The position numbers were made by a program, and so were the translations under genes. From NCBI GenBank assembly GCA_039180225.1, contig JBCDDQ010000002.1, positions 1-47,990 of the forward strand: DNA of 47,990 bases. The letters are read 5' to 3'. How positions within the stretch are numbered: position 1 is the first letter of the stretch; every line of letters begins with the position of its first letter. The notes under the pieces are model-generated. The model had not been told where the DNA came from. It saw only the letters and a program-made list of their open reading frames with translations, and made no database searches. Positions 8,154 to 23,430 of this stretch are shown here, piece after piece. The stretch is from Pseudomonadota bacterium. GTDB taxonomy: Bacteria; Pseudomonadota; Alphaproteobacteria; Rhizobiales; CAJQND01.

Positions 8154-9470
8154 ATGAGAATTGCCATGATTGGCTCCGGCTATGTGGGTTTGGTCTCCGG
8201 AGCGTGTTTTTCTGAGTTCGGTCACTCGGTTGATTGCATCGACCATGATCCAGAGAAGGTGAGCCGGCTCAAGGCGGGCGAAGTACCGATTTACGAACCG
8301 GGACTAGACACCCTCATCGCCACCAACACCAAGGCTGGAAGGCTCTTCTTTTCCTCCGACCTGGAAGGGGCGGTGAAGGCTGCAGATATTATCTTTATTG
8401 CCGTGGGCACGCCGGGCCGGCGCTATGGCGGGGCCGTGGACATGAAGTTCGTGGAGACTGCGGCCCTGGAAATTGCAGCGGCGCTCGACGGCTTCAAGGT
8501 CATTGTCACCAAGTCCACCGTGCCGGTGGGCACCGCGCGGCGCCTTGAGGGCCTCATAAAGGAAACGCGGCCGGATGCGGATTTTGCCATGGTGTCAAAC
8601 CCGGAATTCCTGCGCGAAGGCTCCGCCATTGAAGATTTCATGCGGCCGGACAAGATCGTTGTAGGTGTTGAAGATGAGCGTGCTGAGGAGCTGATGCGGC
8701 AGGCCTACCGTCCGCTGTCTTTGCGCGATGCGCCTCTGATCATGACCGATTTTGAGACCTCAGAGCTGATCAAGTATGCCAACAACGCCTTCCTGGCTAT
8801 GCGTATCAGCTTCATGAACGAGCTTTCCGACCTCTGTGAAGCGGTTGGGGCCAATGTGAGCGAAACGGCACAAGCGCTCGGAAAAGACCGGCGCATCGGA
8901 CCTTACTTCCTACACCCCGGGCCGGCTTATGGCGGCTCCTGCTTTCCCAAGGACACACGCGCGTTGGCGGCCATCGGCCAGTCCAATGGCAGCAGCATGA
9001 CGTCGATCGAAACCACCATCAAAATCAATGAAGACCGCAAATTGAAGATGGTCGATAAGATTTGCGATGCCATGGGCGGCGATGTGAAGGGCAAGAAAAT
9101 TGCGGTTCTGGGGGTCAGCTTTAAGCCGAACACCGATGACATCCGCGAGGCGCCGGCCCTGGTGATCATTCCGGCTTTGCAGGAAAGGGGCGCAGAGATC
9201 GTGGCCCATGACCCGGTGGCCCGCAAGAATGCGGAAGCTGAGCTGAGCGATCTGGACTGGGCGGACGACCCCCTAGATGCGGTCGAAGGGGCTGATTGCC
9301 TGGTGATTTTGACCGAGTGGAATGCCTATCGCGGGCTCGACCTCAAGACGGTTGCAGGCCTTATGCGCAGCCACGTCCTGGTGGACTTGCGCAACATCTT
9401 CAACTTGACTGAGTTCGCCGATCTGCCCTTCTCCTATCATTCACTCGGTCGCAAAGTGATCACCCCATGA
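8154..9470 (+). CDS. ugd: UDP-glucose 6-dehydrogenase
   Basis: MRIAMIGSGYVGLVSGACF (NAD-binding GxGxxG), catalytic region GGSCFPKD, 438 aa. Confidence 0.92.
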   Translation: MRIAMIGSGYVGLVSGACFSEFGHSVDCIDHDPEKVSRLKAGEVPIYEPGLDTLIATNTKAGRLFFSSDLEGAVKAADIIFIAVGTPGRRYGGAVDMKFVETAALEIAAALDGFKVIVTKSTVPVGTARRLEGLIKETRPDADFAMVSNPEFLREGSAIEDFMRPDKIVVGVEDERAEELMRQAYRPLSLRDAPLIMTDFETSELIKYANNAFLAMRISFMNELSDLCEAVGANVSETAQALGKDRRIGPYFLHPGPAYGGSCFPKDTRALAAIGQSNGSSMTSIETTIKINEDRKLKMVDKICDAMGGDVKGKKIAVLGVSFKPNTDDIREAPALVIIPALQERGAEIVAHDPVARKNAEAELSDLDWADDPLDAVEGADCLVILTEWNAYRGLDLKTVAGLMRSHVLVDLRNIFNLTEFADLPFSYHSLGRKVITP

Positions 9471-9483
9471 CGGAGACTTCGCC

Positions 9484-10497
9484 ATGCGCACGCTTGTGAC
9501 CGGAGCGGCCGGCTTTATCGGCTATCATCTGGCGCGCCGGCTCATTGTTGAGGGGCACGACGTTGTCTGCCTGGACAACTTTTCCCACTATTACGACGTG
9601 AGCTTGAAACAGGCCCGCGCAGAGGAGCTGAAGCGTGCCTGCGATGTGGAGATCCTAAACCTGGACCTCACTGACGCCCCTGCGCTTTGGGCCCTCGTGC
9701 AAGAGCGTGCGCCTGAAATCGTCTATCATCTGGCCGCGCAGCCCGGCGTGCGCTACAGCCTGGAAGCGCCGCACACCTATGTGCAAAGCAATCTGACCGG
9801 CTTTGCCAACCTGTTGGAAGCCTGCCGCCAGACGCCGCCACGCCACCTGCTCTATGCCTCCTCAAGCTCGGTCTATGGGGCAAACCGGGCGCACCCTTCA
9901 AACGAGGATGGCCTGACCGACCATCCGCTTTCGCTTTATGCCGCTACGAAGAAAGCCAACGAGGCCCTCGCTCATAGCTACTCACACTTGTTCGATCTGC
10001 CCATGACGGGACTGCGGTTCTTTACGGTCTACGGAGAATGGGGACGTCCCGACATGGCCTTCTTCAAGTTCGCAGACGCCATGCGCGCAGGACGCACGAT
10101 CACCGTGCACAACCATGGCCGGATGAAGCGCGACTTCACCTATGTGGGCGACATCGTGGAGAGCCTCTTTCGGCTTATGCACAAAGCGCCTACGCCTGAC
10201 GCCGGCTGGCAATCGGCTGAGCCGAACTCCGGCACCAGCGGTGTTGCACCCTACCGGGTCCTCAACATCGGCAATGGCCAGCCAGAAGAACTGATGCGCT
10301 ACATCCGTGTGTTGGCGGAGGCCTTTGGCGTTGAGCCCAGCCTGGACATGGTGGGCATGCAGCCCGGCGAGGTTGAGGTGACCTGGGCCGATACCCAAGC
10401 GCTGGAAGCCTTGACCGGATTTCGCCCCCAGACGTCCATCGAAGACGGCATTGAGCGCTTCGCGCGCTGGCACATGACCCATTATCCGGACCTGTAA
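9484..10497 (+). CDS. NAD-dependent epimerase, UDP-glucuronate 4-epimerase type (LpsL-like)
   Basis: VTGAAGFIGYHLARRL Rossmann motif and SDR catalytic YAATKKANE (YxxxK). Starts 13 nt after ugd, the same pairing as the rkpK-lpsL genes of rhizobia. Confidence 0.85.
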   Translation: MRTLVTGAAGFIGYHLARRLIVEGHDVVCLDNFSHYYDVSLKQARAEELKRACDVEILNLDLTDAPALWALVQERAPEIVYHLAAQPGVRYSLEAPHTYVQSNLTGFANLLEACRQTPPRHLLYASSSSVYGANRAHPSNEDGLTDHPLSLYAATKKANEALAHSYSHLFDLPMTGLRFFTVYGEWGRPDMAFFKFADAMRAGRTITVHNHGRMKRDFTYVGDIVESLFRLMHKAPTPDAGWQSAEPNSGTSGVAPYRVLNIGNGQPEELMRYIRVLAEAFGVEPSLDMVGMQPGEVEVTWADTQALEALTGFRPQTSIEDGIERFARWHMTHYPDL

Positions 10498-10499
10498 CG

Positions 10500-12152
10500 T
10501 CACTCAGGCAGAACACTGACAGCGCGCGTGTAGACCGTTACATCCAGAGCTTTCTGCTTACCCTTCACCTGGATCCGTTCTGTTTGCCCCGTGCCGGCAG
10601 GGATGCTGGCGGCCGCTATGGTTGTCGCGGAAACGACCAGCTCGGCGCCAAACTGTTTGGTGGACCCCTCCAGGCGGCTGGCTGCATTGACCGTGTCCCC
10701 CAGAGCGGTGATGCGCTGGCTTGCACGGTTGCTCTGGGCAACACCCACCCGGCCCAGGATGGCCGACCCGGTGTGCATGCCAATACCGATACGCAGCGGT
10801 TCCGGCAGATCATGCGTCAGGCTCTTGTTCAGCGCACCCAAGACGCCCCCCATGGCCTTGGCAGCCCTCAACGCCGCATCAGCGCCTTTGGAGGCATCCT
10901 GGCCCATGCCGAATATGGCCATGATGCCATCGCCGATGAACTTGTCCACATAACCGTCAGAGTCCTCGATCGCTGCGCTCATCTGGCCGAGATACTGGTT
11001 GAGAATGAACACCACATCGTAGGGGTACTTGTTCTCCGACAGGGCCGTGAATCCCCTCAAATCGGCAAACATCAATGTGACTTCCTGCTCTACGCCCCAG
11101 GTGTACCGGTCGCTTGCCGTGGCATCGCGCGTCCTGACCCGATGGGCTGGCAGCAGAGTGGCCACGGAGATATCCTCTGTCGGGACCATCTGGCAGGCCA
11201 GACGTACATTGGCCGCCGCGCCCACCCTGTCCAGCACCCGTTGTTCCTCATCGGACGGGACCTCTAAACTCTCAAGGCCCTCCAGCACCCTGACCCGGCA
11301 GGTTGAGCACCGGGCCCGCCCGCCGCACACGGAGGCATGGGGGATGTTGTGGTTCCGGCTGATCTCCAACAGCGAGGCACCTTGTTCGGTCACCACATCC
11401 TCGCCGCCTGCGTAACTGACCCTGATTTGGGGTTTAAGGCGCCGCCGCCCCACCCAGACGAGCCGCAGCACAGCCGCCAGGCCAACCACTGCCAGCGCAC
11501 CCCAGGCGCCCCAGTCCAGGGCTTTCAGAATGAGCTCGACTTGCGCGGTCGTTAGAGGGTTTTCGAATTCGTACGTGGCTTCGTTCTCGCGGCCCGCCAC
11601 GGTGTATCCGGCATAGGCAAGAACAGGGATGAGAACCGCCACGCCAAACAACGGCCAAACAATGCGCTCGTACCATGGCTTCAGCCGCAGCCAAAAGTGT
11701 AGACCGATACAGGCATGAACCCAGACGAGCGTAACGAGAAACAGCAGCCGCCAGGCCTCTTTCGGCCAAACGCCAAAGAGCACGAACGAATAGTCCGTTT
11801 CCACGCCAAACAACTCGTGCGGCAACCGCGTGCCCAGCATATGGCGAAACAGGAAATAGGGAATGGCCAAACCGAAGACCAACTGCACCCCTTCCCAGGC
11901 CGTCATGCGAAGCGACCGGCGTGAGGCGAACTTGTAGAGCGCCAGTCCGATGTGAACCACCAAGGCCAATCCCAAAACAAGGCTGCCGGGCACTGAACGC
12001 GTGATGGCCACGCGGTAGAGGCGCACCTGTTCCATGGCGTCGAGGGAAATCAGTCCAACCGCGTGATTGAGCAAGTGGGTCAGCGCGAACGAAAACAGGA
12101 TGAGCCCGGAGATCAGGCGCAAACGATGCTGGCTGAAGCCGGCAAAGGTCAT
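10500..12152 (-). CDS. Multidomain class III cyclase: His-rich membrane domain + 2Fe-2S ferredoxin domain + cyclase domain
   Basis: aa 1-235 contain about 5-6 TM helices with conserved-looking His (THLLNH, VVHIGL, WVHACIGLHFW). aa 242-333 contain CGGRARCSTCRV...LACQ (C-x5-C-x2-C-x34-C, nt 11154-11429). aa 355-540 contain MFADLRGFT, DKFIGDGIMAIFG, ITALGDTVNAASRLE (nt 10533-11090). Confidence 0.85.
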   Translation of the reverse strand: MTFAGFSQHRLRLISGLILFSFALTHLLNHAVGLISLDAMEQVRLYRVAITRSVPGSLVLGLALVVHIGLALYKFASRRSLRMTAWEGVQLVFGLAIPYFLFRHMLGTRLPHELFGVETDYSFVLFGVWPKEAWRLLFLVTLVWVHACIGLHFWLRLKPWYERIVWPLFGVAVLIPVLAYAGYTVAGRENEATYEFENPLTTAQVELILKALDWGAWGALAVVGLAAVLRLVWVGRRRLKPQIRVSYAGGEDVVTEQGASLLEISRNHNIPHASVCGGRARCSTCRVRVLEGLESLEVPSDEEQRVLDRVGAAANVRLACQMVPTEDISVATLLPAHRVRTRDATASDRYTWGVEQEVTLMFADLRGFTALSENKYPYDVVFILNQYLGQMSAAIEDSDGYVDKFIGDGIMAIFGMGQDASKGADAALRAAKAMGGVLGALNKSLTHDLPEPLRIGIGMHTGSAILGRVGVAQSNRASQRITALGDTVNAASRLEGSTKQFGAELVVSATTIAAASIPAGTGQTERIQVKGKQKALDVTVYTRAVSVLPE

Positions 12153-12185
12153 AGGAGGCAGCGCCGTGCGGCAGGGCCTGGCGCC

Positions 12186-12653
12186 TTAAGTTCCTTTGGC
12201 ATCGAGCTGTTGGCGCACCTGGGACAATTCCGCGGTGGTCTTGCCCAAGCGTGCTGCCAACTCCCGCATCACCTCAACCGCCATATCAGGGAACTCTTTG
12301 ACGAGGCCTAAGAAATCTTCCTTCTTGATTTTAAGGGTTTGCAAATCCGACTTCGCTCGAATGGTTGCGGTTCGCGGCACATCACACAAAATAGCGATCT
12401 CGCCAATGAACGCGTTGTCGCCCAACACGGCCACCACGGTTTCTCCTTTGGGCGTGTTGACCACAACATCTGCCGCCCCTTTCATGATCACATAGGCGGC
12501 ATCGCCCTCATCGCCCTGGCGAAACACTTCCTGGTTCTCATCAAAGGCCAGGCGCTCAGAGGTGAACGCCAGGAGCTTCAGCTTTGACGGTTCAATCTGG
12601 GCAAACAGGGGGACGCGTCTCAGCATGTCGACTTCTTCTGACAGTGAGGACAT
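12186..12653 (-). CDS. Stand-alone cyclic nucleotide-binding (CNB/CAP-effector) domain protein
   Basis: 155 aa with VPLFAQIEPSKLKLLA, FRQGDEGDAAYVIMKG and phosphate-binding cassette FIGEIAILCDVPRTATIRA (nt 12354-12404). No HTH or other output domain follows. Confidence 0.85.
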   Translation of the reverse strand: MSSLSEEVDMLRRVPLFAQIEPSKLKLLAFTSERLAFDENQEVFRQGDEGDAAYVIMKGAADVVVNTPKGETVVAVLGDNAFIGEIAILCDVPRTATIRAKSDLQTLKIKKEDFLGLVKEFPDMAVEVMRELAARLGKTTAELSQVRQQLDAKGT

Positions 12654-12687
12654 GGTCCGGTTTCCTCCCTAATGGTTACCTTCGCAA

Positions 12688-15426
12688 TCAGGCGCTCGAC
12701 ACGAGCGTTGTGTAATGGCCGCCCTGCTCCAACAGATTGGCCGGCGTATCGTCTTCGGCAAGCGCACCTTTGTCAAACACCAGAACCCGCTTGAACGCTT
12801 CAGCAAACCGCGGCGCCTGCAAGACCCAGAACACGCCAAAGGGGTCTGATCCGTTTTCGCCGCCCGCCATCTCCAGCACACGCTCGATAATCCTTTGCTG
12901 CGTGCGGCTGTCGAGCGCTGTCAGGGCCCGGTTCACAATCAGTATATCGGGTTTTTTGACCAACGCACGCGCCAGCGACAGTTTCTGGCGCTGAGACACG
13001 TTAAGGCGTTTGCCGCCATTGCCCACGTTGAAGTTGAGGCCAACCTGGAACACCTCATCGCGCAGCTCAAGCTCATCCAGCACGTCATGAATGACGTCAC
13101 GGACCTTTTCTGGACCCTCAGCCACCCCATAGGCAACACGGCCCATCAGGATATTGTCCTGCAAGGACGCCGCGGGGTTGTAGACTTCCGGATCATAGAA
13201 CGCGATGGCGTCAGAGTGCTCCTCAGGCAGCCCTTCGCGGAACGCGCTGCGTGCTTCAAGGAGCTTGTTCTTCATATCATCATCAAGCAGACCAAAGCGG
13301 TGCTGCGGCTCCACATAATCGAACGGGAGACGCAGGAACATCTCTTGATCAGCCGGCGAAGCGTCCGTCAGCGACTGGGAGGCCGACCGGGCAAGAGCGG
13401 CTTCATATTCGGGGATCTCCTCGGAGGTCATGAAGCTCAAGCGCTCAAAGAACGGGTGGTCCGGCGGCAGGTCTTTGAAGAGCTCAGTGGCCGTTTCGGC
13501 AATCTTGTGCCCCATGTTAAAGAAGGCCTGATCCAGACCACACCTGCTCAAAACGGCGCGCACATAGGCGTTGCCCACCAGCTTCTCACGCTCAAAGGTC
13601 GGGCCTTGCGCGGTGCCGAACAGGAGGTTCTCGCCCACCGATGCCTGGAGGCTGTAGGAGTTTGGTTCAAACAGCTCCACGAGCTTTGAGAGCGCAGGGT
13701 CTTCCAGTCTTTGCCGCAAGGCCTTGCGGGCCTCAATAAACTTGGCTGCCAGCTCTGGGTCTTGCTCCGGATCAACCTGGCCTCTCAGACCGAGATCGAA
13801 CACGTCCTGGCGCAACTCAACCACATCCAACAGCTTCCTGGCCACTTCGTCGGCCTGGTTTGGATCCTCTGTGCCCAGTGCATCAAAGTCGAGCCACTCT
13901 GCTCTGATATCCAGATCGGTGTTGCCGGCGAGCGCCGCCTCGGCAATCTCCCAGGCACGCTCTTTGGGATCCACCTCTTCCGGCGCGCGTTCGCGCACGG
14001 GCTGGTGTTTGAGGCCATAGAACAAGGCGTCGCGGAAGCTGGTCTGCGGCAGATAGATGTCCGGCCCCACGTAGGCTGTGCGCCGGCCAGTGAGGGATTC
14101 ATGATGGTCGTCCAGGTTTTGCCCTTCCAGGCTGATCGACCCTGAGGTGGGCACTGTGATCCTGGCCATCACATCGGCCATGGTCTCAGCGCCTGAGTTG
14201 ACAGTGCCCACGGCGGCCACCTGTTCATCGGGGCCAAACTTGAAGGTCGCACTTTCAAGCAAGTTCGTCCCCGCGTCATCCACAACGCCGACCCGGGAGA
14301 CAGAGAAGCCCTCCTTGATGGCGGGCACCGGTCCTGCCGGCGGGGTCTGCAGCTCAGGCTCCATCATGTTGTCAGGCTGGAACTGCTCAATCACCTGGGT
14401 GTACTTGATTTGCACATCCAAACGCTGTTGGTCATAGGCGATGAGGTCCGCCACCGGCCCAGGCAGGTCCTTGTAGGCTGCAATCACAGCCACAAGCTGG
14501 CCAATGTCCAGATCACCGGTGATCACCAGGTACCCGCCAATCAGGTAGAACATGAACGGGGTCAACTGAGCCAGGAAGTTGTTGAGGAACTTGATGAAGA
14601 ACTTCCTCTGAAACAGTTCGTAACGGATGGCAAAGATGGTGCCGAGACGACTGGCAAGGTCTGCTCTTTCCCAGTTGGAGGTGTCGTTGGTGTGCACGTT
14701 GTTGATGCCGTCCACAACTTCGCCCACCCGGCCGGCGAGCGCGCGGGCGGTGAGCTGGCGACGCTTGCCCAAAATCAGCAACCGGCGGCGCAGGCGCGGA
14801 ATCAAAAACGCCTGCACCAGCACAATAGTGCCGGCGATGGCTCCCAGCCAAACGTCCTGAACCATGATGAACAGCATGGCCGTAAGTGCCTGTCCGCCCA
14901 GGAACACGGGCTGCACCAGCATGTCGCCGATAAAGCCACCCAACGGTTCCACTTCATCCTTGATCATCGTGGCCGCTTCCGGGGCTTTGATGCGCCTGAA
15001 ATAGGAGTTGGGGAACCGGAGGATGCGGTCAAGCAGCTGGTAGCGCAGGCGCCTCAACATGCGCTCTCCGAGCCGGCCCTTGTACGTGTTGATGTAGAAC
15101 TTGAAGAGCCCGTTGATGCAGACAAAACCCAAGAAGGTTGCGCACAAACAGAAAAGGAAGGATAGCTGACCCAGCTCGAAGCCGTTGAACAAAGTGACAG
15201 TTCCCGCGGAGGATATCCATGAGGGCACATCGAACGCAATTTGCAAAAACGGCTGAGTGGCCCCTTCTCCCTCAAACCCCTGGCCTTGGATCGGGCCATT
15301 GACAATGCGTTTGGGCAGATCAAGCGCCAGGAAATAGGGCACCATGGAGATCAAAATGATCGTCAAGATCCAGATCTGCTGCGCCCTCGTGTAACGCCAG
15401 ATGTATTTGAAAAGACTTGATTCCAT
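12688..15426 (-). CDS. ABC type-I-exporter-like protein (TMD + degenerate, expanded NBD); probable pseudo-ATPase
   Basis: 912 aa. N-terminal about 340 aa resemble a 6-TM ABC_membrane domain. The C-terminal NBD scaffold is recognisable (GPDEQVAAVGTVNSGAETMADVMAR; LNVSQRQKLSLARALVKKPDILIVNRALTALD) but the catalytic residues are replaced, and about 330 aa are inserted between the Q-loop and the signature. Confidence 0.8.
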   Translation of the reverse strand: MESSLFKYIWRYTRAQQIWILTIILISMVPYFLALDLPKRIVNGPIQGQGFEGEGATQPFLQIAFDVPSWISSAGTVTLFNGFELGQLSFLFCLCATFLGFVCINGLFKFYINTYKGRLGERMLRRLRYQLLDRILRFPNSYFRRIKAPEAATMIKDEVEPLGGFIGDMLVQPVFLGGQALTAMLFIMVQDVWLGAIAGTIVLVQAFLIPRLRRRLLILGKRRQLTARALAGRVGEVVDGINNVHTNDTSNWERADLASRLGTIFAIRYELFQRKFFIKFLNNFLAQLTPFMFYLIGGYLVITGDLDIGQLVAVIAAYKDLPGPVADLIAYDQQRLDVQIKYTQVIEQFQPDNMMEPELQTPPAGPVPAIKEGFSVSRVGVVDDAGTNLLESATFKFGPDEQVAAVGTVNSGAETMADVMARITVPTSGSISLEGQNLDDHHESLTGRRTAYVGPDIYLPQTSFRDALFYGLKHQPVRERAPEEVDPKERAWEIAEAALAGNTDLDIRAEWLDFDALGTEDPNQADEVARKLLDVVELRQDVFDLGLRGQVDPEQDPELAAKFIEARKALRQRLEDPALSKLVELFEPNSYSLQASVGENLLFGTAQGPTFEREKLVGNAYVRAVLSRCGLDQAFFNMGHKIAETATELFKDLPPDHPFFERLSFMTSEEIPEYEAALARSASQSLTDASPADQEMFLRLPFDYVEPQHRFGLLDDDMKNKLLEARSAFREGLPEEHSDAIAFYDPEVYNPAASLQDNILMGRVAYGVAEGPEKVRDVIHDVLDELELRDEVFQVGLNFNVGNGGKRLNVSQRQKLSLARALVKKPDILIVNRALTALDSRTQQRIIERVLEMAGGENGSDPFGVFWVLQAPRFAEAFKRVLVFDKGALAEDDTPANLLEQGGHYTTLVSSA

Positions 15427-15533
15427 TAGAAAATCGTCAACTCAGGTCAGCCCCCATACCTCGGCTGCTTACCCTTGCACAAAATGGGTAAGTCCGACAA
15501 TAAGCTAGCGCGGCCTTTTTCCGCCGAATGCCC

Positions 15534-16682
15534 TTAAGAACTAAGCTTCTCGGACAGTAAGGCGCGCAGAATTCGGGCGGACCGCTCAGCGCCGTTCAAG
15601 TCGCCTGCAGGTTCAGGGGCCGGGAGCGCCAGAGCTTCTGACATGGCCCGCGATAGCGTTGCTGCCGAAAGGTCGCGCTGATGCACGACCACAGCTCTTT
15701 TTTGCTTGGCGAGAATTTCGGCGCGCCGGGTTTGCTCGGTCTCCCCATCTGTGGAATAGGGCACCAGCACGGCACGGCAGCCCGCGCTTTGCAGGTCGGC
15801 CACGGTGTTATAGCCCGCCTGGGAGACGGAAACCTGCGCCAGCTTCATCAGGGCCGGTAAATCGGCTCTGAACCGTTCCAGGGTCACGAACGCAGGCAGC
15901 CGACCGCTTAATGCGCGAAACGTCTTTTCCGATAAGTTCGGTCCGGTCAGAACGAGCCACTTGCCGGAGGCAAAGTTAGGGTCCATGCGCGCGCCCAGAG
16001 CAGCTTCAAAGAGCTCGTCCCCGACGGCTCCGCCGCCTGCAGACACGATCACGTCGAACGCTTCACCGGCCTCCGTGTGCCCGCGCTCAGGCCCGACCCA
16101 GCCGGTATAGTGGAGCTTGGCGCTGATCAGGCCGGCCTCTGGAAAGCTCAAACTCAGCGGCGCGAAAGCCTCAGAACCGTGTACCAGGACGGCGTCGAAG
16201 TACTCCTCCACCAGCCGGCGGGTTTCGCTGATCCGCTTCGCTTTGCGGCCTTCTTGCAGGATGTCACGGATGGAGGCCGCAACCAAGGGGCGCCGCCGGG
16301 CGTTCCGCGACGCATCGAGCAGAGGCACCAGCTCGAACCGCATAATCCGGCGGGCAAACGGATAAGCCTCAATCAACAGGATGTCCGGTTCGTTCGCGGC
16401 GAACAGGTTGAGCAGCTCTGCCTTGCGCTCCGCCTTCAAAGCGTCGGTGACCGGGTTTCCTTCGCTGTCCACAAGGCTGCCAAAACCGGCCACGCCGGAC
16501 GACACCGCCGGCAGCTGAACGCATCTGGCGCCGCCCCAGTCGATACCTTCAAGCGGCTTCCCGCCATAAGCGATGGTCACCGAAAAGCCTGCCCTCACCA
16601 GGGCCCGCGCAATTCGCGACGAGCGCACAACATGCCCGATCCCAAGCAGGTGCTGCACATAGAACAGAACTTTGTGTGACAT
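15534..16682 (-). CDS. Glycosyltransferase, MurG-like GT-B fold (COG4671-type predicted glycosyl transferase)
   Basis: N-terminus VLFYVQHLLGIGHVVRSSRIARAL and C-terminal QAGYNTVADL...ETEQTRRAE resemble GT28/MurG motifs. The ORF track starts at a TTG (16685); I use the adjacent ATG at 16682, 3 nt after the upstream stop. Confidence 0.7.
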   Translation of the reverse strand: MSHKVLFYVQHLLGIGHVVRSSRIARALVRAGFSVTIAYGGKPLEGIDWGGARCVQLPAVSSGVAGFGSLVDSEGNPVTDALKAERKAELLNLFAANEPDILLIEAYPFARRIMRFELVPLLDASRNARRRPLVAASIRDILQEGRKAKRISETRRLVEEYFDAVLVHGSEAFAPLSLSFPEAGLISAKLHYTGWVGPERGHTEAGEAFDVIVSAGGGAVGDELFEAALGARMDPNFASGKWLVLTGPNLSEKTFRALSGRLPAFVTLERFRADLPALMKLAQVSVSQAGYNTVADLQSAGCRAVLVPYSTDGETEQTRRAEILAKQKRAVVVHQRDLSAATLSRAMSEALALPAPEPAGDLNGAERSARILRALLSEKLSS

Positions 16683-16685
16683 CAA

Positions 16686-17975
16686 TCAGGCGGCGCCCCG
16701 CAAGGGCTCAGCGCGCTCGGCGCCCGTCGGGTCAGCTGGCTCTCCCTCAAACAGCTGCATCAGCTGGTCGATACCACCCTCATAGCTAAACTCTGCACGC
16801 ACGCGCGCCTTTCCTGCTTCGCCAAGCTGTTCTCTCAACGCGGGAGTGCGGATGAGTTTTTCCAGAGCACTGGCCAATGCCTTGGGATCGTCCGGGGGCA
16901 CCAAGATGCCGTTCTCTCCGTCTCTCACCAGCTCCGGCACGCCGGAGACCGGTGTTGAGAGACAACTCAGCCCTTGGCTTTGGGCTTCCACCAAGACATT
17001 GGGCAAGCCATCTCTGTCTCCATTTGGCGCAATCCGGCAGGGCAGAATGAAAAGGTCTGATGACCGGTAGCGCTCAATCACTTCGGTCTGCGCCAGGGCG
17101 CCCAACCATTCTATGCGGTCGGTCAGCTTTAAGGCTTCTGCCTGGGCTTTCAGCTTGGGCAGAAGCTCGCCGCCGCCAATATGGCTCCAGCGCCAGTTCA
17201 GCTCAGGCGGCAGTAACGCCAGAGCGTCCAACAAAGTGTCGATACCCTTTTTCTGGACCGCACGGCCCACTGTGATAAGTCCCACCGGCGCACCGTCCTG
17301 TGCCCCATCAGGACGACCGTCGCGCTTGGGAGGGCCGGCAAAGCGCTTCAGGTCGATCCCATGATAGATCAACTTCACCTTGTCCGGCTCCGCACTTAGG
17401 GAGCGCAGATGATCGGCCCCATAGCGGGTGCACACACTGACCCAGCCGGTGCTGTTCAACTTCTCCGTCAGCTCCCAGTCTGGCGAGGTCCAAATGTCCT
17501 TGGCATGAGCCGAGCAGGTCCATGGCAGGCCTGTCATGAGAGACGTATAACGGGTGACCGAGGCGGGCGTGTGGATGAAGTGCGCGTGCAGCCAGCCCAC
17601 ATCTTGAGGGAGCTCGGCCGCCATCACCAAGGCTTGCCCGAACCGCCTGAAACGGTTGCGGCTAACATCGCGTTTAAGATCTTTCAGCCAGCATTTGAAC
17701 GCAGCTTTATATCCGGGCCGGCGGCGCACCTTCCACCAGCTCGCCAAAACCCGCAAAGGCGCATCGTGCAGATACTCCGGCAAGTAAGAAACGGGCGCCA
17801 CAATCTCCGCATGGATGGGATGCGTATCTGGATCATAGGGCTGGCGCAGTGAGATAATGCGAATGTCCATGCCCTGCAGTTCGAGCCCGCGAATCTCTTG
17901 CGCGATGAACGTTTCAGACAGTCTGGGGTAGCCCTTTAGAACAAATGCTACTGCCCTTTTCATGGGATCCCTCAT
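16686..17975 (-). CDS. Glycosyltransferase, GT4/group 1 (WcaL-like)
   Basis: N-terminus VAFVLKGYPRLSETFIAQEI and C-terminal DGLPNVLVEAQSQGLSCLSTPVSGVPELV (E-x7-E region). ATGA overlap with the upstream GT stop. An alternative ATG at 17963 is possible. Confidence 0.8.
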   Translation of the reverse strand: MRDPMKRAVAFVLKGYPRLSETFIAQEIRGLELQGMDIRIISLRQPYDPDTHPIHAEIVAPVSYLPEYLHDAPLRVLASWWKVRRRPGYKAAFKCWLKDLKRDVSRNRFRRFGQALVMAAELPQDVGWLHAHFIHTPASVTRYTSLMTGLPWTCSAHAKDIWTSPDWELTEKLNSTGWVSVCTRYGADHLRSLSAEPDKVKLIYHGIDLKRFAGPPKRDGRPDGAQDGAPVGLITVGRAVQKKGIDTLLDALALLPPELNWRWSHIGGGELLPKLKAQAEALKLTDRIEWLGALAQTEVIERYRSSDLFILPCRIAPNGDRDGLPNVLVEAQSQGLSCLSTPVSGVPELVRDGENGILVPPDDPKALASALEKLIRTPALREQLGEAGKARVRAEFSYEGGIDQLMQLFEGEPADPTGAERAEPLRGAA

Positions 17976-19198
17976 CCGCCGCCGGCAATCACTCTCAGCT
18001 CGGGGCGCGCGGGCCTTGCCAGGTGAGCTTCTACGATCTCGCCAATCTTCGTCAATCCATCAAGCGGCAGCCAACAACCTGCCTCAGACGGTCTTCGGCG
18101 CTTGGGCAAGGCTTCTATTGCATCAGCCATCTTTTGCGGGTCCGAGGCCAACTCTGGCACCATCATCTTGATCACGCCCAGCTCATCAGCCCGGCGGGCC
18201 CTGATCAACTGTTCCTGGCGTGGTTCGGTACGGGGCACCACAATGGCGCGCTTGTCGAACGATAATATCTCACAGAAGGTGTTGTAGCCACCCATCCCGA
18301 TCAAACCCTTGGCATCTGTAATGAGGGTTTCAATCCGGTTGTCGAAGTCCATAAGCTGGATTTTAGGCTTGCCCTCCGCGCGTCGCAAAATGGCCTCGCG
18401 TTCTTGCGTGGGCATAAACGGGCCGAGAATGATCACCGCCGGATGCAGATTGTAGCTCTTGTTTGCCTCGGCGTGTTCGTAGGCGGCCAGCACATTGTTC
18501 ACCACATCCGAGCCGTCTCCCCCGCCTCCGGTGGTGACGAGAACATAGTCACCGGCAACGGCGTTGATGGCACCTTTGGTTTCAGCAGGTTGATGGCGCT
18601 CCAGGTAACCGGTGTAGGTGATGCGCTGATTAAGCGCCTTGGAGGTTTTGAGGCCGCTCAACGGGTTCCAAAACCCCGGCGGACCGTAGACCCAGATATC
18701 ATCATAAAGCTCGTCGAGCTTTGGCAGAATGCCGCGGCGCTTCCACTCTTTCTTCAACAGGTGCGGGGCGTCCATCACATCCCTCAGACCCACCACGAGC
18801 GTGCAGTCCTGGTCCTTGAGATATCTCAGCGTGTCCTCAATCTCGCCATGCAGACCGAGCGGTTCTTTGTCCACGATGAACATGTCAGGATTGAAGTGTT
18901 CCGCCGTGTGGCGGATGATCGACCGGCGCATCTCCAGAGTTTCCTCCAGATCAATGTGCTCATCGAGAGATGTGTACTGTCCGTTGTGCAGCTTGATCAC
19001 ACTGGGGATCTTCACGAAGTCCACCCGTGCTTTGAAATCAAACGCCCCGGCAATGGGTGAGCCGGAAATGATCAGGACGTTCAAGCCTTTGAACTGCTCC
19101 ACCAGAGCATGCGCAATGGTGCGGCAGCGGCGCAGATGGCCCAAGCCAAAAGTGTCGTGGCTATACATCAGGACGCGCGCGTGCTCGAGCCGTTTCAT
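17972..19198 (-). CDS. Glycosyltransferase, MurG-like GT-B fold (COG4671-type), paralogue of 15534-16682
   Basis: N-terminus RVLMYSHDTFGLGHLRRCRTIAHAL and C-terminal GMGGYNTFCEIL...EPRQEQLIRARR. SD-like AAAGGTGA lies 5 nt upstream of the ATG. Confidence 0.7.
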   Translation of the reverse strand: MKRLEHARVLMYSHDTFGLGHLRRCRTIAHALVEQFKGLNVLIISGSPIAGAFDFKARVDFVKIPSVIKLHNGQYTSLDEHIDLEETLEMRRSIIRHTAEHFNPDMFIVDKEPLGLHGEIEDTLRYLKDQDCTLVVGLRDVMDAPHLLKKEWKRRGILPKLDELYDDIWVYGPPGFWNPLSGLKTSKALNQRITYTGYLERHQPAETKGAINAVAGDYVLVTTGGGGDGSDVVNNVLAAYEHAEANKSYNLHPAVIILGPFMPTQEREAILRRAEGKPKIQLMDFDNRIETLITDAKGLIGMGGYNTFCEILSFDKRAIVVPRTEPRQEQLIRARRADELGVIKMMVPELASDPQKMADAIEALPKRRRPSEAGCWLPLDGLTKIGEIVEAHLARPARPELRVIAGGG

Positions 19199-19295
19199 CG
19201 GTCACCTTTCTGCAATCGCCAATGTAGCAATTTGCCTCTTGTCAGCCGCCCGCTCGTCTTATGCCATATATGGGGCCCGCAGGGAACAGCAGCAA

Positions 19296-19315
19296 CCATG
19301 GCAGAGCGGCCATGG
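19296..19315 (-). terminator. Weak hairpin 18 nt downstream of the peptide-permease stop
   Basis: CCATGGC (19296-19302) and GCCATGG (19309-19315) form a 7-bp perfect inverted repeat with a 6-nt loop. On the minus strand it is followed by TTGCTGCTGTT, only moderately T-rich. Confidence 0.3.
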
Positions 19316-19333
19316 CCAAAATGTGTTCCAACG

Positions 19334-20524
19334 TTATTTGTAAGGATCTGCCGCATCGCGCAGACCATCTCCAAAGAAATTGAAGGCCAAAATAACCAGG
19401 ATCACCGGCACCACAGGCAGCAAAAGCCAAGGATAAAGCGCCACCACATTGATGTTCTGCGCTTCTTTCAGCAGAACGCCCCAACTTGTGATCGGCGGCC
19501 TCAGGCCCAAACCCAAGAAGCTAAGGGCGGTCTCGCCCAACACCATGGTGGGGATGGTGATCGTTGCGGAGGCGATCAGGTGGCTCATAAAGCCCGGCAC
19601 CAGATGGCGTCCGATGATGCGTTTGGGGTTTGCACCCATCAATTGCGCGGCCACCACATAGTCTTCCTCACGCAAGGCCAACAGCTTGGAGCGCACGGCC
19701 CTCGCCAGCCCGGTCCAGTCTAATATGCCTAAAATTATCGTAATGCCGAAATAGACAATCAACGGTCCCCAGGTCGACGGCATGATGGCCGCAAGCGCCA
19801 TCCACAAGGGGATGGCGGGGAGCGATTGGAGCACTTCGATCATGCGCTGAACGATCATGTCGAAGAGGCCGCCATAATAGCCGGCAAGGCCGCCGATCAC
19901 GATGCCCAGAACGAAGCTTATGGTGACCCCAAGCAGACCAATGGTCAGCGAAATCCGCGCCCCATAGATGATGCGTGACAGCATATCCCGGCCCAGTCGG
20001 TCTGTACCCAAGAGGAAGAGCGTGCCGTCTTTCGGCGGGCAAACGATGTGGAAATCCCCCTCAAACAGTCCCCAGAACATGTACTTGTCGCCGGAGCAGA
20101 AGAAGCGGATCTTTTTCACGTCCGATTTGTTTTCGGTGTACTCCCGCTTGAGCGTTTCCATGTTCAGCTTGTAGTTGGCCCCGTAGACGAAGGGCCCCAC
20201 GAAACTGCCTTCATGGAACAGATGCACTGCCTGAGGCGCAGAGAAGATCCGGTCCGAATGGCGGGTGTGCAGGTTGTATGGCGCCAGCACTTCGCTGAAC
20301 AGCGTACTGATATACAGGAGAAGCAGAAAGATGCCCGAAGCCACAGCCACCTTGTGCTGTTTGAACTTCCACCACATCAGCTTGGTCTGAGAGGCCAGGT
20401 AGACCTTTTCCTGAGCCGGGGTCAGGCGCTCCACCGAACGCGGATCGAACGGTTTGTCCGAAACATAATGAGGCATTTCTGCGCCCGGCGCAGGCAGCGG
20501 GCTTTCTGGACGGCCATTACTCAT
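19334..20524 (-). CDS. Peptide ABC transporter permease (DppC/OppC/YejE-like)
   Basis: 396-aa multi-TM protein with a long N-terminal extension (LTPAQEKVYLASQTKLMWWKFKQHK) typical of YejE-type permeases. ATGA-type overlap with the upstream permease. Confidence 0.85.
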   Translation of the reverse strand: MSNGRPESPLPAPGAEMPHYVSDKPFDPRSVERLTPAQEKVYLASQTKLMWWKFKQHKVAVASGIFLLLLYISTLFSEVLAPYNLHTRHSDRIFSAPQAVHLFHEGSFVGPFVYGANYKLNMETLKREYTENKSDVKKIRFFCSGDKYMFWGLFEGDFHIVCPPKDGTLFLLGTDRLGRDMLSRIIYGARISLTIGLLGVTISFVLGIVIGGLAGYYGGLFDMIVQRMIEVLQSLPAIPLWMALAAIMPSTWGPLIVYFGITIILGILDWTGLARAVRSKLLALREEDYVVAAQLMGANPKRIIGRHLVPGFMSHLIASATITIPTMVLGETALSFLGLGLRPPITSWGVLLKEAQNINVVALYPWLLLPVVPVILVILAFNFFGDGLRDAADPYK

Positions 20525-21519
20525 TTTGTGGCGCCTCCAGCCAGACGTATGCGCGGATCAAGAATGGCCAGCGCGATGTCAGACACCAGAACGCCAATCA
20601 CTGTGAGCGTGGCCAGGAACATCAGGAACGAACCGGCCAGATACATGTCCTGGCTGGCCAGAGCGCTCAAAAGCAGCGGGCCTGTTGTCTCCAGCGACAA
20701 GACCACCGCCACGATCTCAGCGCCGGAGATGATCGACGGAAGAATGGACCCAATGTCTGAGATGAAGAAGTTCAACGACATGCGCAGTGGATATTTTACG
20801 AGCGCCTTGAAGGGCCTTAAACCCTTGGCCTTGGCCGTGACCACGTACTGCTTCTGCAGCTCGTCCAAAAGGTTGGCGCGCAGGCGGCGGATCATTGCGG
20901 CGGTGCCCGACGTGCCGATCACCACCACAGGGATCCAGAGGTGCTCCATGATCGACTTGAACTTGTCCCAGCTCATGGGCTTGTCGAGATATTCCGGATC
21001 CATGAGGTGCCCGACCGAGGTGCCGAACCATATGTTCGCCAAGTAGAGCATCACCAACGCCAATAGAAAATTGGGGATGGCGAGCCCTAAGAGCCCGACA
21101 AAAGTCAGCCCGTAATCGCTCCAGCTGTACTGGTGGGTGGCGGAGTAAATGCCGATGGGGAAAGCCACGATCCAGGTGAAGATGATCGTGACGAACGACA
21201 AGAGGATGGTCAGCCAAAGGCGCTCGCCCACCACATCGGTTACCGGCAACTGGTACTCGAACGAATAGCCGAAATCGCCCACCAACATGCCGCCGAGCCA
21301 GTGGAAATAGCGCAGCACCACAGGCTTGTCGAAGCCATATTCCTCACGCAGAAACGCTATCTGGGTTTCGTCCACCTTCTCGCCCTGCTGTTTCAGCTCG
21401 GCGATGTAGGTCTCCAGATAATCACCCGGCGGGAGTTCGATAATGAAGAAGATCAATGCTGAGATGATCAGCAAAGTCGGGATCATTATCAAGACACGCC
21501 TGATGATATAGGCAAACAT
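20521..21519 (-). CDS. Peptide ABC transporter permease (DppB/OppB/YejB-like)
   Basis: N-terminus MFAYIIRRVLIMIPTLLIISALIFFIIELPPGDY is the canonical start of the DppB family. Confidence 0.88.
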   Translation of the reverse strand: MFAYIIRRVLIMIPTLLIISALIFFIIELPPGDYLETYIAELKQQGEKVDETQIAFLREEYGFDKPVVLRYFHWLGGMLVGDFGYSFEYQLPVTDVVGERLWLTILLSFVTIIFTWIVAFPIGIYSATHQYSWSDYGLTFVGLLGLAIPNFLLALVMLYLANIWFGTSVGHLMDPEYLDKPMSWDKFKSIMEHLWIPVVVIGTSGTAAMIRRLRANLLDELQKQYVVTAKAKGLRPFKALVKYPLRMSLNFFISDIGSILPSIISGAEIVAVVLSLETTGPLLLSALASQDMYLAGSFLMFLATLTVIGVLVSDIALAILDPRIRLAGGATK

Positions 21520-21522
21520 GGC

Positions 21523-23430
21523 TTAGTTGCCTCCAGCGTTCGGGTCGATCCAGAACGTGTCCATTTTGTAGATCCCGAAATAGGCTCCTGGATCATAGTT
21601 CCAGATCCCCTTCTCAGGCACGTTCTGAAGCTTGTTCGCCACCACAAGCGGCTGCAGGGTTCCGTTGATCACGCCGATGGAAAAGACCTGGTCGGTGTAG
21701 ATTTTCAGCATCTGGTGCCAGATACCGGTGCGCTCCTCCGAAGTGGCGGATTTGAGCCAGCTTTGATAGAGCTCCACGAGCTTTTGCGCTTCGGGCATAT
21801 CGACCTTCGTGCCGGCATTGCCCTGGGTTTCATAGAACTGTCCCCAGGTGGGCCATTGGAAATGCTCCTGGGTGGTCGGGGCAAGCTCATCCGGCTTCAT
21901 TTCCGGCGTCGGAATTGCATTGTCGAGCCCTTGGAACACGCCCATGATGGTGTCACCGGAGAGCACCCGGCGACGGAAGATGTCGCGTTGCGTGGGGCGC
22001 ACGAAGAGCTCCACGCCGACCTCTTTCCAGTTGTCCCGGATCAGTTCGAGCACGTCGGTCTCTTCAGTGCTCTCACCTGCTGTCTCCACCACGATTTGCA
22101 TAACTCTGCCGTCCGGCAGAAGGCGGATCCCCCCCGGATTGCGCTTGTCCAGCCCTGCTTCGTCCAGGAGCTTGTTGGCTTGAGCGATATCAAAGGACAC
22201 CCAGGCGTTCTGATACTCTTCCTTGTAGAGAGGACTGGTCGGCAAGACCGTGTTTGCACTGGGGCGGGCCAGGCCATAGTAGACCGCCTGATTGATCTCG
22301 TCGCGATCAATGGCAAGCGACAGTGCCCGGCGGACACGCACGTCGCGGAACAACTTGCGCCACACCTCATCGCCCGCGTTCAAGTTCGGGAACAAGGCGA
22401 TTTGCGCCCCTTTCGCCGTCTCCCACAGCCTCACATTGATAGGATGGCGCTTGGTGGCCGCCTTCAAGAAGGTGAAGTTGTCGAAGCGGATATAGCGGCC
22501 TTGCAGATCGGTTTCCCCGGCGCCGGCCTTGGTGGGCACGAGGCCGGTGGAGCCCAGCCCTACTTCGATTGTGTCGATATACGGCAGTTGCTGACCTTCA
22601 GGATCCACCCGGTGATAGTACGGGTTGCGCTCGAATACAAAGCGCTCTGCCGGGGGTTTTGTGCTGTTGCGCCAAGGTTGCAGTGTGGGCAGATCCGGGT
22701 TCTCCGGGCGATACTGGCGGCCCAGGCGGCGGTGCAGTGCGGCCCAGTTGCGCTGCTTGTGCTTTTCCACCTCCTGCTTCAATTCGCCCGCAGGGCGGTA
22801 CTTGGCGTGGAACTTCCTCATGTAGTGAGCCGGCATGTAGAGATAGAACGGCCGGGCGCCCGCCAGAGCGGGTACGAAATTCGGGTTCGGATCCTTGAAC
22901 GTGTAGCGCACGGTGTGCTCATCGATGATTTCGAATTTGAGCGGCTCTCCGTCAGAGGTCAAAAGCCTCGGAATACCGCCGCGCACCAGTTCTTCATTTT
23001 GTATCACATCTTCCCAGAAGTACCGGAAATCCTCTGCAGTGAAGGGATGACCATCGGACCATTTATGGCCAGGGCGCAGATGCAGTGTGAAGATCCGCCC
23101 GTCTTCCACATCGATTTTCTTCAAAATGTCCGGCTTAAGCGCCAGCTTGCTGTCATATCCCACAAGGCGGGCATAGCCGTAGACAGTCATCATGCGGATG
23201 TCTTTTTGCTTGCCCAGCAGCATCCGAATGGTCCCGCCACTCTTGCCGGGTTTGGCCCCAAGGGCCTCGAAATCGACAACAAGCGGCGCTTCGGGCAAGC
23301 GCTTGGCAATCGGCGGTAAGGTTCCGGACGCTACCGCGTCCACAAAGCTTGGCGTCTCTTTGTATGACTGGGCGGTTGCCGGCACCAGTGCGGCCAGCAA
23401 GAGCCCCATGACGAGGAGTAGTCGCTTCAT
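21523..23430 (-). CDS. Extracellular solute-binding protein, family 5 (peptide/YejA-like)
   Basis: 635 aa. Signal peptide MKRLLLVMGLLLAALVPATA. Size and position within a Dpp/Yej-type operon fit. Confidence 0.8.
   Translation of the reverse strand: MKRLLLVMGLLLAALVPATAQSYKETPSFVDAVASGTLPPIAKRLPEAPLVVDFEALGAKPGKSGGTIRMLLGKQKDIRMMTVYGYARLVGYDSKLALKPDILKKIDVEDGRIFTLHLRPGHKWSDGHPFTAEDFRYFWEDVIQNEELVRGGIPRLLTSDGEPLKFEIIDEHTVRYTFKDPNPNFVPALAGARPFYLYMPAHYMRKFHAKYRPAGELKQEVEKHKQRNWAALHRRLGRQYRPENPDLPTLQPWRNSTKPPAERFVFERNPYYHRVDPEGQQLPYIDTIEVGLGSTGLVPTKAGAGETDLQGRYIRFDNFTFLKAATKRHPINVRLWETAKGAQIALFPNLNAGDEVWRKLFRDVRVRRALSLAIDRDEINQAVYYGLARPSANTVLPTSPLYKEEYQNAWVSFDIAQANKLLDEAGLDKRNPGGIRLLPDGRVMQIVVETAGESTEETDVLELIRDNWKEVGVELFVRPTQRDIFRRRVLSGDTIMGVFQGLDNAIPTPEMKPDELAPTTQEHFQWPTWGQFYETQGNAGTKVDMPEAQKLVELYQSWLKSATSEERTGIWHQMLKIYTDQVFSIGVINGTLQPLVVANKLQNVPEKGIWNYDPGAYFGIYKMDTFWIDPNAGGN

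Follow-up and report, generated by a model that had tools for sequence, protein, structure and literature searches.

ATP-binding cassette (ABC) exporters are defined by ATP-driven alternating access. Type IV exporters encoded beside glycosyltransferases, such as MsbA, PglK and NdvA/ChvA, usually export the product of those enzymes. The SbmA/BacA proteins (SLiPT), which are relevant to rhizobial symbiosis, carry an ABC-exporter-like membrane domain that operates without ATP hydrolysis; they lack a nucleotide-binding domain (NBD) and are proton-driven importers. In known heterodimeric exporters, the chain with a dead Walker B motif and switch keeps a consensus signature, which completes the active site of its partner. 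One degenerate site is common among heterodimeric type IV exporters, and this site still binds ATP (PMC7756269). Here, we analyzed a gene for a 912-amino acid (aa) protein of the ABC exporter fold, located on the minus strand of a 47,990-nucleotide (nt) stretch of an alphaproteobacterial genome of the order Rhizobiales (GCA_039180225.1, contig JBCDDQ010000002.1, positions 1 to 47,990; hereafter the window). All of its ATP motifs are replaced, its NBD appears to contain a helical subdomain in three tandem copies, and a gene for a cyclic-nucleotide-binding (CNB) protein directly follows it.

The protein is encoded by the longest open reading frame (ORF) in the neighborhood, which begins with ATG and is uninterrupted. 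Pfam assigned ABC_membrane (PF00664) to aa 87-316 with 58.3 bits against a cut-off of 28, and ABC_tran (PF00005), C-terminal to this transmembrane domain (TMD), with 38.6 bits against a cut-off of 25. The ABC_tran match was split into two stretches, the first of which (aa 391-486) corresponds to profile positions 2-80. The best sequence match in PDB by phmmer, the NBD of TAP1, also fell into two pieces, with TAP1 residues 32-125 aligned to aa 387-480 and residues 142-255 to aa 793-910; the gap between them amounts to 17 residues in TAP1 versus 313 residues here. An AlphaFold2 (AF2) model based on a 66-sequence alignment showed six long transmembrane helices at an overall predicted local distance difference test (pLDDT) score of 82, and a Foldseek search with the whole model returned TmrAB, P-glycoprotein, PCAT1, MsbA and Atm1 as the top structures (E 1e-14 to 1e-17). 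All scores against the named exporter families of NCBIfam that we compared (TIGR02203, TIGR03796, HepA NF045513, CydD/CydC and the glucan exporter NF010178) were far below the cut-offs, as in the weak matches to MsbA TIGR02203 (125.5 versus 602 bits) and to another family (110 versus 725 bits); the HepA and glucan exporter models likewise gave weak matches. By fold and Pfam criteria, the protein is a half-size type IV ABC exporter and a member of the ABC exporter superfamily. An initial annotation, made from the sequence without database searches, had called it ABC-exporter-like; Pfam, NCBIfam, PDB sequences, AF2 and Foldseek all bear this out, and the PF00005 and PF00664 profile alignments place the motifs where that annotation had put them.

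Mean column identity reached 0.81 in TM2-TM6, versus 0.57-0.59 in the NBD core and 0.56-0.68 in the repeats described below. The TMD, including its cavity-lining helices and coupling regions, is the best-conserved part of the 912-aa protein. Ordinary ABC exporters show the opposite, with the NBD more conserved than the TMD, and conservation in this protein is therefore inverted relative to them.

Every motif string that had been picked out by eye was found at the residue numbers given for it. Walker A reads GTVNSGAET (aa 407-415, nt 14182-14208) and departs from GxxGxGK[ST] through the replacement of Lys by Ala and of Ser/Thr by Glu; the residues had been identified correctly, whereas the range first assigned to them, nt 14185-14211, reads VGTVNSGAE and is one codon off. 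The Q-loop reads YVGPD (aa 452-456) and has lost its Gln, the signature reads LNVSQ (aa 808-812, nt 12991-13005) instead of LSGGQ, and Walker B reads ILIVNR (aa 828-833, nt 12928-12945), which differs from hhhhDE (h, hydrophobic) and lacks the catalytic Glu. The switch is VLQAP (aa 868-872, nt 12811-12825), with the His replaced. Judged by its spacing from Walker A, the aromatic position of the A-loop is occupied by Val382 and Asp383. In the phmmer alignment, the TAP1 Walker A sequence GPNGSGKST lay over GTVNSGAET and the TAP1 Walker B region over ILIVNRALTALD, and the Walker B and D-loop of TAP1 were together covered by ILIVNRALTALDS. The initial annotation had named an intact Walker A Lys or Walker B Glu elsewhere in the protein as able to overturn its reading; neither profile nor sequence searches placed one there.

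We then read the same positions in a clade of 121 sequences comprising the best 120 homologues and the query. The Walker A Lys position held Ala in 84 sequences, Gly in 23 and Lys in none, and the following residue was Glu in 107 and Asp in 12, giving the pattern G-x-x-N-S-G-[A/G]-[E/D]. Walker B conformed to h-h-h-h-N-[R/K], with Asn in 117/121 sequences followed by Arg (104) or Lys (15) in 119/121. The signature followed L-[STN]-x-x-Q, the switch position varied between A, Q and S, and Asp383 was invariant. The P-loop glycines G407 and G412 were invariant as well, and the D-loop (ALD; L835, D839) and an X-loop-like VGxGGKR element (G802, G805, K806, R807) were invariant or at least 90% conserved; the intracellular-loop (coupling) regions were also kept. 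These comparisons indicate that the NBD is a predicted pseudo-ATPase in which the A-loop, Walker A and B, Q-loop, LSGGQ and switch His are all replaced, and in which the elements that would couple the NBD to the TMD and to a second NBD are retained. The substitutes are themselves conserved across the clade and hence selected. The claim that all catalytic motifs are substituted thus holds for this protein and its clade; it does not hold for the family as a whole, given that the Walker A Lys, the Walker B Glu or the switch His survives in distant relatives with the insert.

The heterodimeric exporters TAP1/TAP2, TmrAB, TM287/288 and LmrCD resemble this protein in fold, in their non-canonical catalytic residues and in their retained D-loop and coupling elements. 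Unlike those systems, which have a partner gene and one fully active site, a single chain is degenerate here in Walker A and B, the Q-loop, the switch and the signature, no partner gene was found, and two extra units are inserted. The consensus signature that the degenerate chain of a heterodimer would keep is likewise missing, LNVSQ standing in its place.

The extra length lies between the Q-loop and the signature and amounts to approximately 291 aa (aa 463 to 753); the span of about 330 aa proposed earlier was approximate and right in substance. The motif following the Q-loop recurs as SFRDALFYGL (aa 463), SVGENLLFGT (aa 596) and SLQDNILMGR (aa 754), and the pre-signature element occurs as VELRQDVFDLGLRGQV (aa 536) and LELRDEVFQVGLNFNVG (aa 786), all as first noted. 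A BLASTP self-comparison of aa 371-912 gave no matches between internal repeats, which suggests old copies that have diverged. Profiles built from sub-alignments of the family and compared with hhalign recovered them: aa 741-797 matched aa 583-640 over 56 columns (probability 97.5%, E 6e-12), aa 769-798 matched aa 519-547 (probability 90%) and aa 741-762 matched aa 450-471 (probability 52%). The helices ELAAKFIEARKALRQRL and LLEARSAFREGL, each just before the next unit, matched with a probability of 49%. True repeat matches scored 67, 37 and 28, versus at most 22 (E 0.007) for controls consisting of the TMD, both NBD core halves and the reversed insert. Furthermore, the last unit aligned to a canonical helical subdomain, for example that in MsbA NBD 103-253, and AF2 predicted three successive rounds of a short strand, the post-Q helix, two or three helices and a long helix, with pLDDT 85-93 in the insert and 87 in a model of the insert by itself (aa 478-742). 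Collectively, the profile comparisons and their controls agree with the earlier proposal of repeated copies and indicate that the unit running from the Q-loop to the signature helix, i.e., the helical subdomain, is present three times in tandem, the insert representing two predicted extra copies.

The family is broad. A search of 5.8 billion proteins returned 6875 matches, the best 120 of which share 52-97% identity and are nearly all 900-950 aa long, and among 1.84 billion representative proteins, a query with the insert (aa 440-800) recovered 1035 clusters at E <= 1e-3, of which 290 also reached E <= 1e-30, with clusters defined at 50% identity. The gene was found in 567 genomes and is also present on finished replicons, namely pSymB of Sinorhizobium meliloti and pRL11 of Rhizobium johnstonii 3841 (formerly R. 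leguminosarum bv. viciae). A sequencing or assembly error as the origin of the insert or the substitutions, or decay of the gene to a pseudogene, is practically out of the question: the closest homologues share both the length and the motif pattern, the insert folds with confidence, and an orthologue has a transposon phenotype. Assembly error, which had been listed earlier as a possible refutation, and decay to a pseudogene were therefore both rejected on the basis of hundreds of same-length homologues, the finished genomes and the insert clusters. We found no description of this ABC protein family in the literature. It is uncharacterized, widespread and of unusual architecture.

Motif states were read in 74 full-length insert-bearing representatives. 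Relatives that retain GxxGxGK[ST] pair it with an N-E or D-E Walker B, and some also keep the switch His. Walker A and B carry KS and NE in P0122 and KT and NE in P0265, both with the switch His, and KT/NE in P0153, KS/DE in P0185 and KS/NE in P0201. The first Walker B position was Asn in 38 representatives and Asp in 23; none of the 74 had the Q-loop Gln or LSGGQ. The search for relatives with canonical motifs, as the initial annotation had advised, thus yielded several that retain the Walker A Lys and none with the Q-loop Gln or LSGGQ. Because these distant relatives keep the Walker A Lys, the motifs decayed stepwise. The two Walker motifs also covary by a charge swap: where the Walker A Lys is present, the second residue of Walker B is Glu or Asp, and where the Lys is absent and the next residue acidic, as in the clade of this protein, that residue is Arg. 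A rough neighbor-joining tree confined the Arg state mainly to one clade with a few scattered cases, so the independent events are few. Two explanations would fit the covariation: a Glu414-Arg833 salt bridge fills the empty site, or the positive charge has been relocated. The covarying sites are aa 413-414 and 832-833 (nt 14185-14190 and 12928-12933).

The CNB gene starts 34 nt past the ABC stop codon and has its own ribosome-binding site, AGGGAGG. Its product scored 73.9 bits against PF00027 (cut-off 27.5), which places it in the CNB family, and retains an intact phosphate-binding cassette, GEIAILCDVPRTATIRA (pattern G-E-x-A-x(n)-R-[ST]-A); no helix-turn-helix or other DNA-binding domain was found in it. 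In 80 genome loci sampled from GTDB species representatives, the CNB gene directly followed the ABC gene in 79; the contig of the 80th ends inside the ABC gene, making 79/79 testable loci. Moreover, at least 16 of the 74 full-length representatives, all distant relatives, are C-terminal fusions of the ABC protein to a CNB domain (1010-1206 aa), with Pfam cNMP_binding recorded on the fused P0185 and P0133. Adjacency and fusion together are strong evidence that the two proteins act together, and the pseudo-ATPase is very probably coupled functionally to the CNB protein. The nearest precedent for this pairing is the cyanobacterial-type bacteriocin exporter (TIGR03796/TIGR03797) with its CNB accessory protein (TIGR03896), in which a type IV exporter is paired with a separate CNB protein. 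TIGR03796 was the top NCBIfam match of the ABC protein, at 131.6 bits versus a cut-off of 853, and the CNB protein scored 30 bits against TIGR03896 (cut-off 161); unlike the protein described here, the bacteriocin exporters have a peptidase domain and intact ATP sites. The CNB partner of R. johnstonii 3841 (pRL110046, locus L081 14818-15285) is publicly annotated as an FNR/CRP family transcriptional regulator. For a protein of approximately 155 aa with no helix-turn-helix, this annotation is probably wrong, and reading it as a CNB partner would correct it.

The initial annotation had seen neither the CNB partner nor the nearby cyclases, the metallo-beta-lactamase (MBL)-fold hydrolase and the three glycosyltransferases upstream. 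Lying 33 nt downstream of the CNB gene, the ferredoxin-cyclase fusion (Fer2-cyclase) is the likely source of the signal, and homologues stand beside the module in 10/80 loci. An uncharacterized N-terminal part of approximately 240 aa precedes its 2Fe-2S ferredoxin domain (aa 254-325), which is followed by the cyclase domain (aa 356-535), and the enzyme may respond to redox state. A second, divergent cyclase-like gene lies further downstream; its product only just reaches Pfam Guanylate_cyc and matches PADLOC models of PycC, a pyrimidine cyclase, and the cyclic nucleotide of the module could be other than cAMP. The MBL hydrolase, which has weak NCBIfam matches to the cyclic-nucleotide-degrading phosphodiesterase model NF041851 and to RNase Z, is a candidate cyclic-nucleotide phosphodiesterase; a homologue occurs within 10 kb of the module in 42/80 loci. 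Similar genes accompany the fused relatives: an MBL gene assigned by Pfam to Anti-Pycsar_Apyc1 lies directly upstream of P0185 (L083 5192-5971), and a cyclase gene adjoins P0133.

All three glycosyltransferases were present, sometimes in divergent orientation, in 62/68 loci with enough upstream sequence, an arrangement typical of most Hyphomicrobiales and Rhizobiaceae loci. Against PDB and NCBIfam they showed generic similarity only (the C-terminal half of MurG, PimB'/MshA and EpsE-like proteins). The exporters MsbA, PglK, NdvA/ChvA and HepA are likewise half-transporters of the same fold encoded beside glycosyltransferases; in contrast, they are canonical ATPases of approximately 580-610 aa without an insert. 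Some genomes of Rhizobium and Mesorhizobium carry 1-2 kb of lineage-specific genes between the last glycosyltransferase and the ABC gene (L078 8025-9731; L022 9058-9765), encoding WYL/HTH-like regulator, glyoxalase-like and methyltransferase-like proteins, so a single transcript does not always span both parts of the cluster. Scans for promoters and terminators in 10300-19500 gave nothing above shuffled expectation, so strand and short gaps are the only evidence for the operon structure.

Published insertion sequencing (INSeq) data are available for R. johnstonii 3841, in which the glycosyltransferases are named redAh, redB and redA. Its orthologues were assigned by matching the gene order of locus L081 to four anchors in Wheatley et al. 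(bioRxiv 10.1101/2020.05.07.082560): optAD (pRL110053-54), a sugar dehydrogenase (pRL110056), a "permease of ABC exporter" (pRL110047) and an "FNR/CRP family" gene (pRL110046). In that study, the ABC gene pRL110047 was neutral (NE) in culture, rhizosphere and root, essential (ES) in nodule bacteria and defective (DE) in bacteroids, and the CNB gene pRL110046 was NE in culture, DE in the rhizosphere and ES in both nodule bacteria and bacteroids. The GT4 gene redB (pRL110049) was NE in culture and ES in nodule bacteria and bacteroids; the sugar dehydrogenase gene pRL110056 was DE in nodule bacteria and ES in bacteroids, and disruption of the optABCD importer genes gave a fitness advantage (AD) in the rhizosphere and on the root (bioRxiv 10.1101/2020.05.07.082560). 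In a separate report, pRL110046 was required for root attachment at pH 6.5 and 7.5 and was treated as a transcription factor (bioRxiv 10.1101/2022.11.21.517457). With orthology assigned by gene order, Rhizobium appears to need its counterparts of the exporter, the CNB protein and one glycosyltransferase in pea nodules.

The non-hydrolytic and regulated role that the initial annotation had suggested is a hypothesis, one that the obligatory CNB partner, a TMD more conserved than the NBD, and the retained D-loop and X-loop-like motifs support. Our favored reading, which we put forward tentatively and at somewhat less than even confidence, is an ATP-independent, cyclic-nucleotide-controlled gated translocator for a glycoconjugate. 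The protein would form a homodimer with two dead sites that neither bind nor hydrolyze ATP canonically, and the CNB partner, on sensing a cyclic nucleotide, would take over from ATP in setting the closing and opening of the NBD pair. The neighboring cyclases would make this nucleotide, and the MBL hydrolase would remove it. A probable docking, lever or transmission surface for the CNB partner would be the enlarged helical region, and the conserved TMD would serve as a gated, energy-independent path, i.e., a flippase or facilitator. The cargo would be a glycolipid or oligosaccharide produced by the adjacent glycosyltransferases and delivered to the outer face of the inner membrane. In rhizobia, the translocated product would matter for life inside nodules. 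A bolder version, which we regard as doubtful, holds that the NBD dimer now closes and opens on a cyclic nucleotide in place of ATP, this ligand being sensed through a CNB domain that is attached or fused, producing a second-messenger-gated, energy-independent ABC "transporter" in which the triplicated subdomain is the transmission element and gated glycoconjugate export is required for nodule survival.

Several observations weigh against a gated translocator of this kind. Disruption of redA, redAh (GT28-type) and the cyclase gene pRL110055 was NE (INSeq; bioRxiv 10.1101/2020.05.07.082560), so only some genes of the cluster share the phenotype. None of the loci of P0185, P0133 and P0265, all distant relatives, contains the glycosyltransferases; thus, the cargo may not be common to the whole family, or the protein may at its core do something other than export glycans. 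The insert-only AF2 model had no significant Foldseek match in PDB (best E 0.5, with a few CFTR NBD1 structures at E ~5), and the fold identity of the first two repeats therefore rests on sequence profiles and secondary structure; the structure prediction proposed earlier bore out the repeated order of elements but left the helical-subdomain fold of the extra copies unconfirmed by Foldseek. Finally, Arg833 might stand in for the missing Walker A Lys and so keep some nucleotide binding. Taken further, this last point becomes the proposal that the site binds, and perhaps slowly hydrolyzes, nucleotide through non-canonical residues, with Arg833 serving for Lys and Glu414 for metal, in a nucleotide-powered or nucleotide-sensing exporter. 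The charge-swap covariation, the invariant P-loop glycines and the relatives that keep GxxGxGK[ST] would all suit such residual use. Nevertheless, the A-loop aromatic residue, Q-loop Gln, Walker B Asp, signature glycines and switch His are lost together, the NBD core is weakly conserved and the salt bridge explains the covariation equally well, and we consider residual nucleotide use unlikely.

The protein could instead be a non-translocating, membrane-anchored signaling scaffold or sensor that, with the CNB protein, regulates the glycosyltransferases, the Opp-type importer or other targets, in the manner of SUR-Kir6.x. We judge this rather unlikely: the loss of all ATP motifs, an association with cyclic-nucleotide parts that is tighter and wider than that with glycosyltransferases, and a large helical insert usable as an interaction platform speak for it, whereas a TMD that is the most conserved region is what a retained conformational or translocation function predicts, and type IV exporters in this genomic setting usually move the product of the adjacent enzymes. 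It is also quite improbable that the protein is the inactive half of a heterodimer such as TmrAB, TM287/288 or TAP1/TAP2, with a canonical half-transporter encoded elsewhere providing one working ATP site. A degenerate site is common in such exporters (PMC7756269), TAP1 is the best PDB sequence match, and the D-loop and X-loop-like motifs are retained; however, in agreement with the earlier remark that the operon encodes no partner, a phmmer search of the window ORFs found no second ABC_membrane gene in the 48 kb, the only other NBD being that of the importer ATPase, and the conserved synteny of the 80 loci contained no partner half-transporter. Since one chain combines a degenerate signature and Q-loop with two degenerate Walker motifs, pairing with any partner would still leave two impaired composite sites. 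Least probable among these functional alternatives, at a very low level, is a Pycsar-like anti-phage effector, in which a cyclase signal on infection would cause the CNB and ABC-fold proteins to damage the membrane. The cyclases match PADLOC PycC, the CNB protein matches the CNB part of PycTIR models and an Apyc1-family MBL gene adjoins P0185. These are domain-level matches only, with generic class III similarity of the cyclases, and the ABC protein matches no defense model in PADLOC. Across many genera of the order, the module keeps its synteny at 50-57% identity. It lies amid genes for sugar metabolism and transport, and nodule colonization requires its orthologues; such synteny, such a setting and a nodule role are not typical of patchy defense islands. 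Pycsar defense was accordingly rejected as the main explanation on the domain-level nature of the PADLOC matches and the synteny.

A cyclic-nucleotide-gated translocator would be a bacterial counterpart of CFTR in logic, reached by a different route. In CFTR (ABCC7) and SUR (ABCC8/9), as proposed here, the ABC exporter fold is not used for ATP-powered pumping and has come under second-messenger control, in CFTR by cAMP through protein kinase A and the R domain. Unlike this protein, CFTR and SUR are full-length eukaryotic ABCC proteins that bind ATP at both sites and hydrolyze it at one, and they are regulated by phosphorylation or Mg-nucleotides with no directly attached CNB domain. The resemblance is one of analogy only, in the sense of a regulated ABC protein, and the protein is a member of neither family. 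SbmA/BacA differs in that an enlarged pseudo-NBD is kept here, and its likeness is by description only. A widespread family, with more than 1000 clusters at 50% identity, that has lost its ATP motifs in one chain, tripled a helical subdomain and become tied to a cyclic-nucleotide sensor would show that the ABC exporter fold can be re-used with a different trigger. The Lys-retaining relatives, which grade into fully degenerate members, offer a natural series for the role of each motif in conformational coupling. Furthermore, the presence of the family in model rhizobia with nodule transposon phenotypes makes the hypothesis directly testable and bears on envelope remodeling in symbiosis.

Table 1. 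Positions in the window of the ABC gene, its domains and the surrounding genes
Feature	Position (nt)	Strand	Evidence
ABC-exporter-fold protein with pseudo-NBD, 912 aa (whole gene)	12688-15426	-	ORF; PF00664 and PF00005 above cut-offs; AF2; Foldseek
TMD, aa 1-350: six long helices and a small extracytoplasmic beta region (aa 58-85)	14377-15426	-	AF2 secondary structure; column identity
N-terminal half of NBD core, aa 373-449: degenerate Walker A; invariant Asp383 at or beside the A-loop position	14080-14310	-	phmmer; clade alignment
Predicted repeat A, aa 450-582: Q-loop strand YVGPD (no Gln), post-Q helix SFRDALFYGL, extra piece of ~47 aa, pre-signature helix VELRQDVFDLGL, signature-helix-like ELAAKFIEARKALRQRL	13681-14079	-	hhalign; AF2
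Predicted repeat B, aa 583-740: VELFEPNSYSLQASVGENLLFG, helices, then LLEARSAFREGL	13207-13680	-	hhalign against repeat C; controls; insert-only model
Predicted repeat C, aa 741-807: runs into the signature; ends in X-loop-like NVGNGGKR	13006-13206	-	Profile; phmmer; hhalign
C-terminal half of NBD core, aa 808-912: LNVSQ, ILIVNR, D-loop TALDS (12907-12921), VLQAP	12691-13005	-	phmmer; clade alignment
CNB partner, 155 aa, stand-alone	12186-12653	-	PF00027, 1e-20
Fer2 and class III nucleotide cyclase, 550 aa	10500-12152	-	Pfam Fer2, Guanylate_cyc
MBL-fold hydrolase, 277 aa	7140-7973	-	Pfam Lactamase_B_2
Divergent class III cyclase-like protein, 460 aa	5761-7143	-	Guanylate_cyc 8e-5; PADLOC PycC 3e-18
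Three glycosyltransferase genes directly upstream of the ABC gene	15534-19198	-	Pfam
GT28_C-type glycosyltransferase	15534-16685	-	Pfam
GT4 glycosyltransferase	16686-17975	-	Pfam
GT28_C-type glycosyltransferase	17972-19198	-	Pfam
Opp/Gsi-type ABC importer: 631-aa double-NBD ATPase, 635-aa family-5 substrate-binding protein, two permeases	19334-25322	-	Pfam; NCBIfam

In about half of the loci, synteny extends to the Opp/Gsi-type importer, whose genes lie directly upstream of those for the glycosyltransferases. Next to the module but on the other strand, 8154-10497 (+) carries a UDP-glucose/GDP-mannose dehydrogenase-family gene and an NAD-dependent epimerase (Pfam); a dehydrogenase of the same family, pRL110056, stands at the other end of the R. 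johnstonii 3841 cluster and is required in nodules, a hint that uronic acid is part of the glycoconjugate. Further along, a 244-aa ORF without a Pfam match (5030-5764, +) is translationally coupled to a GT4-family gene (3933-5033, +), and these two genes may be a further part of the sugar cluster.

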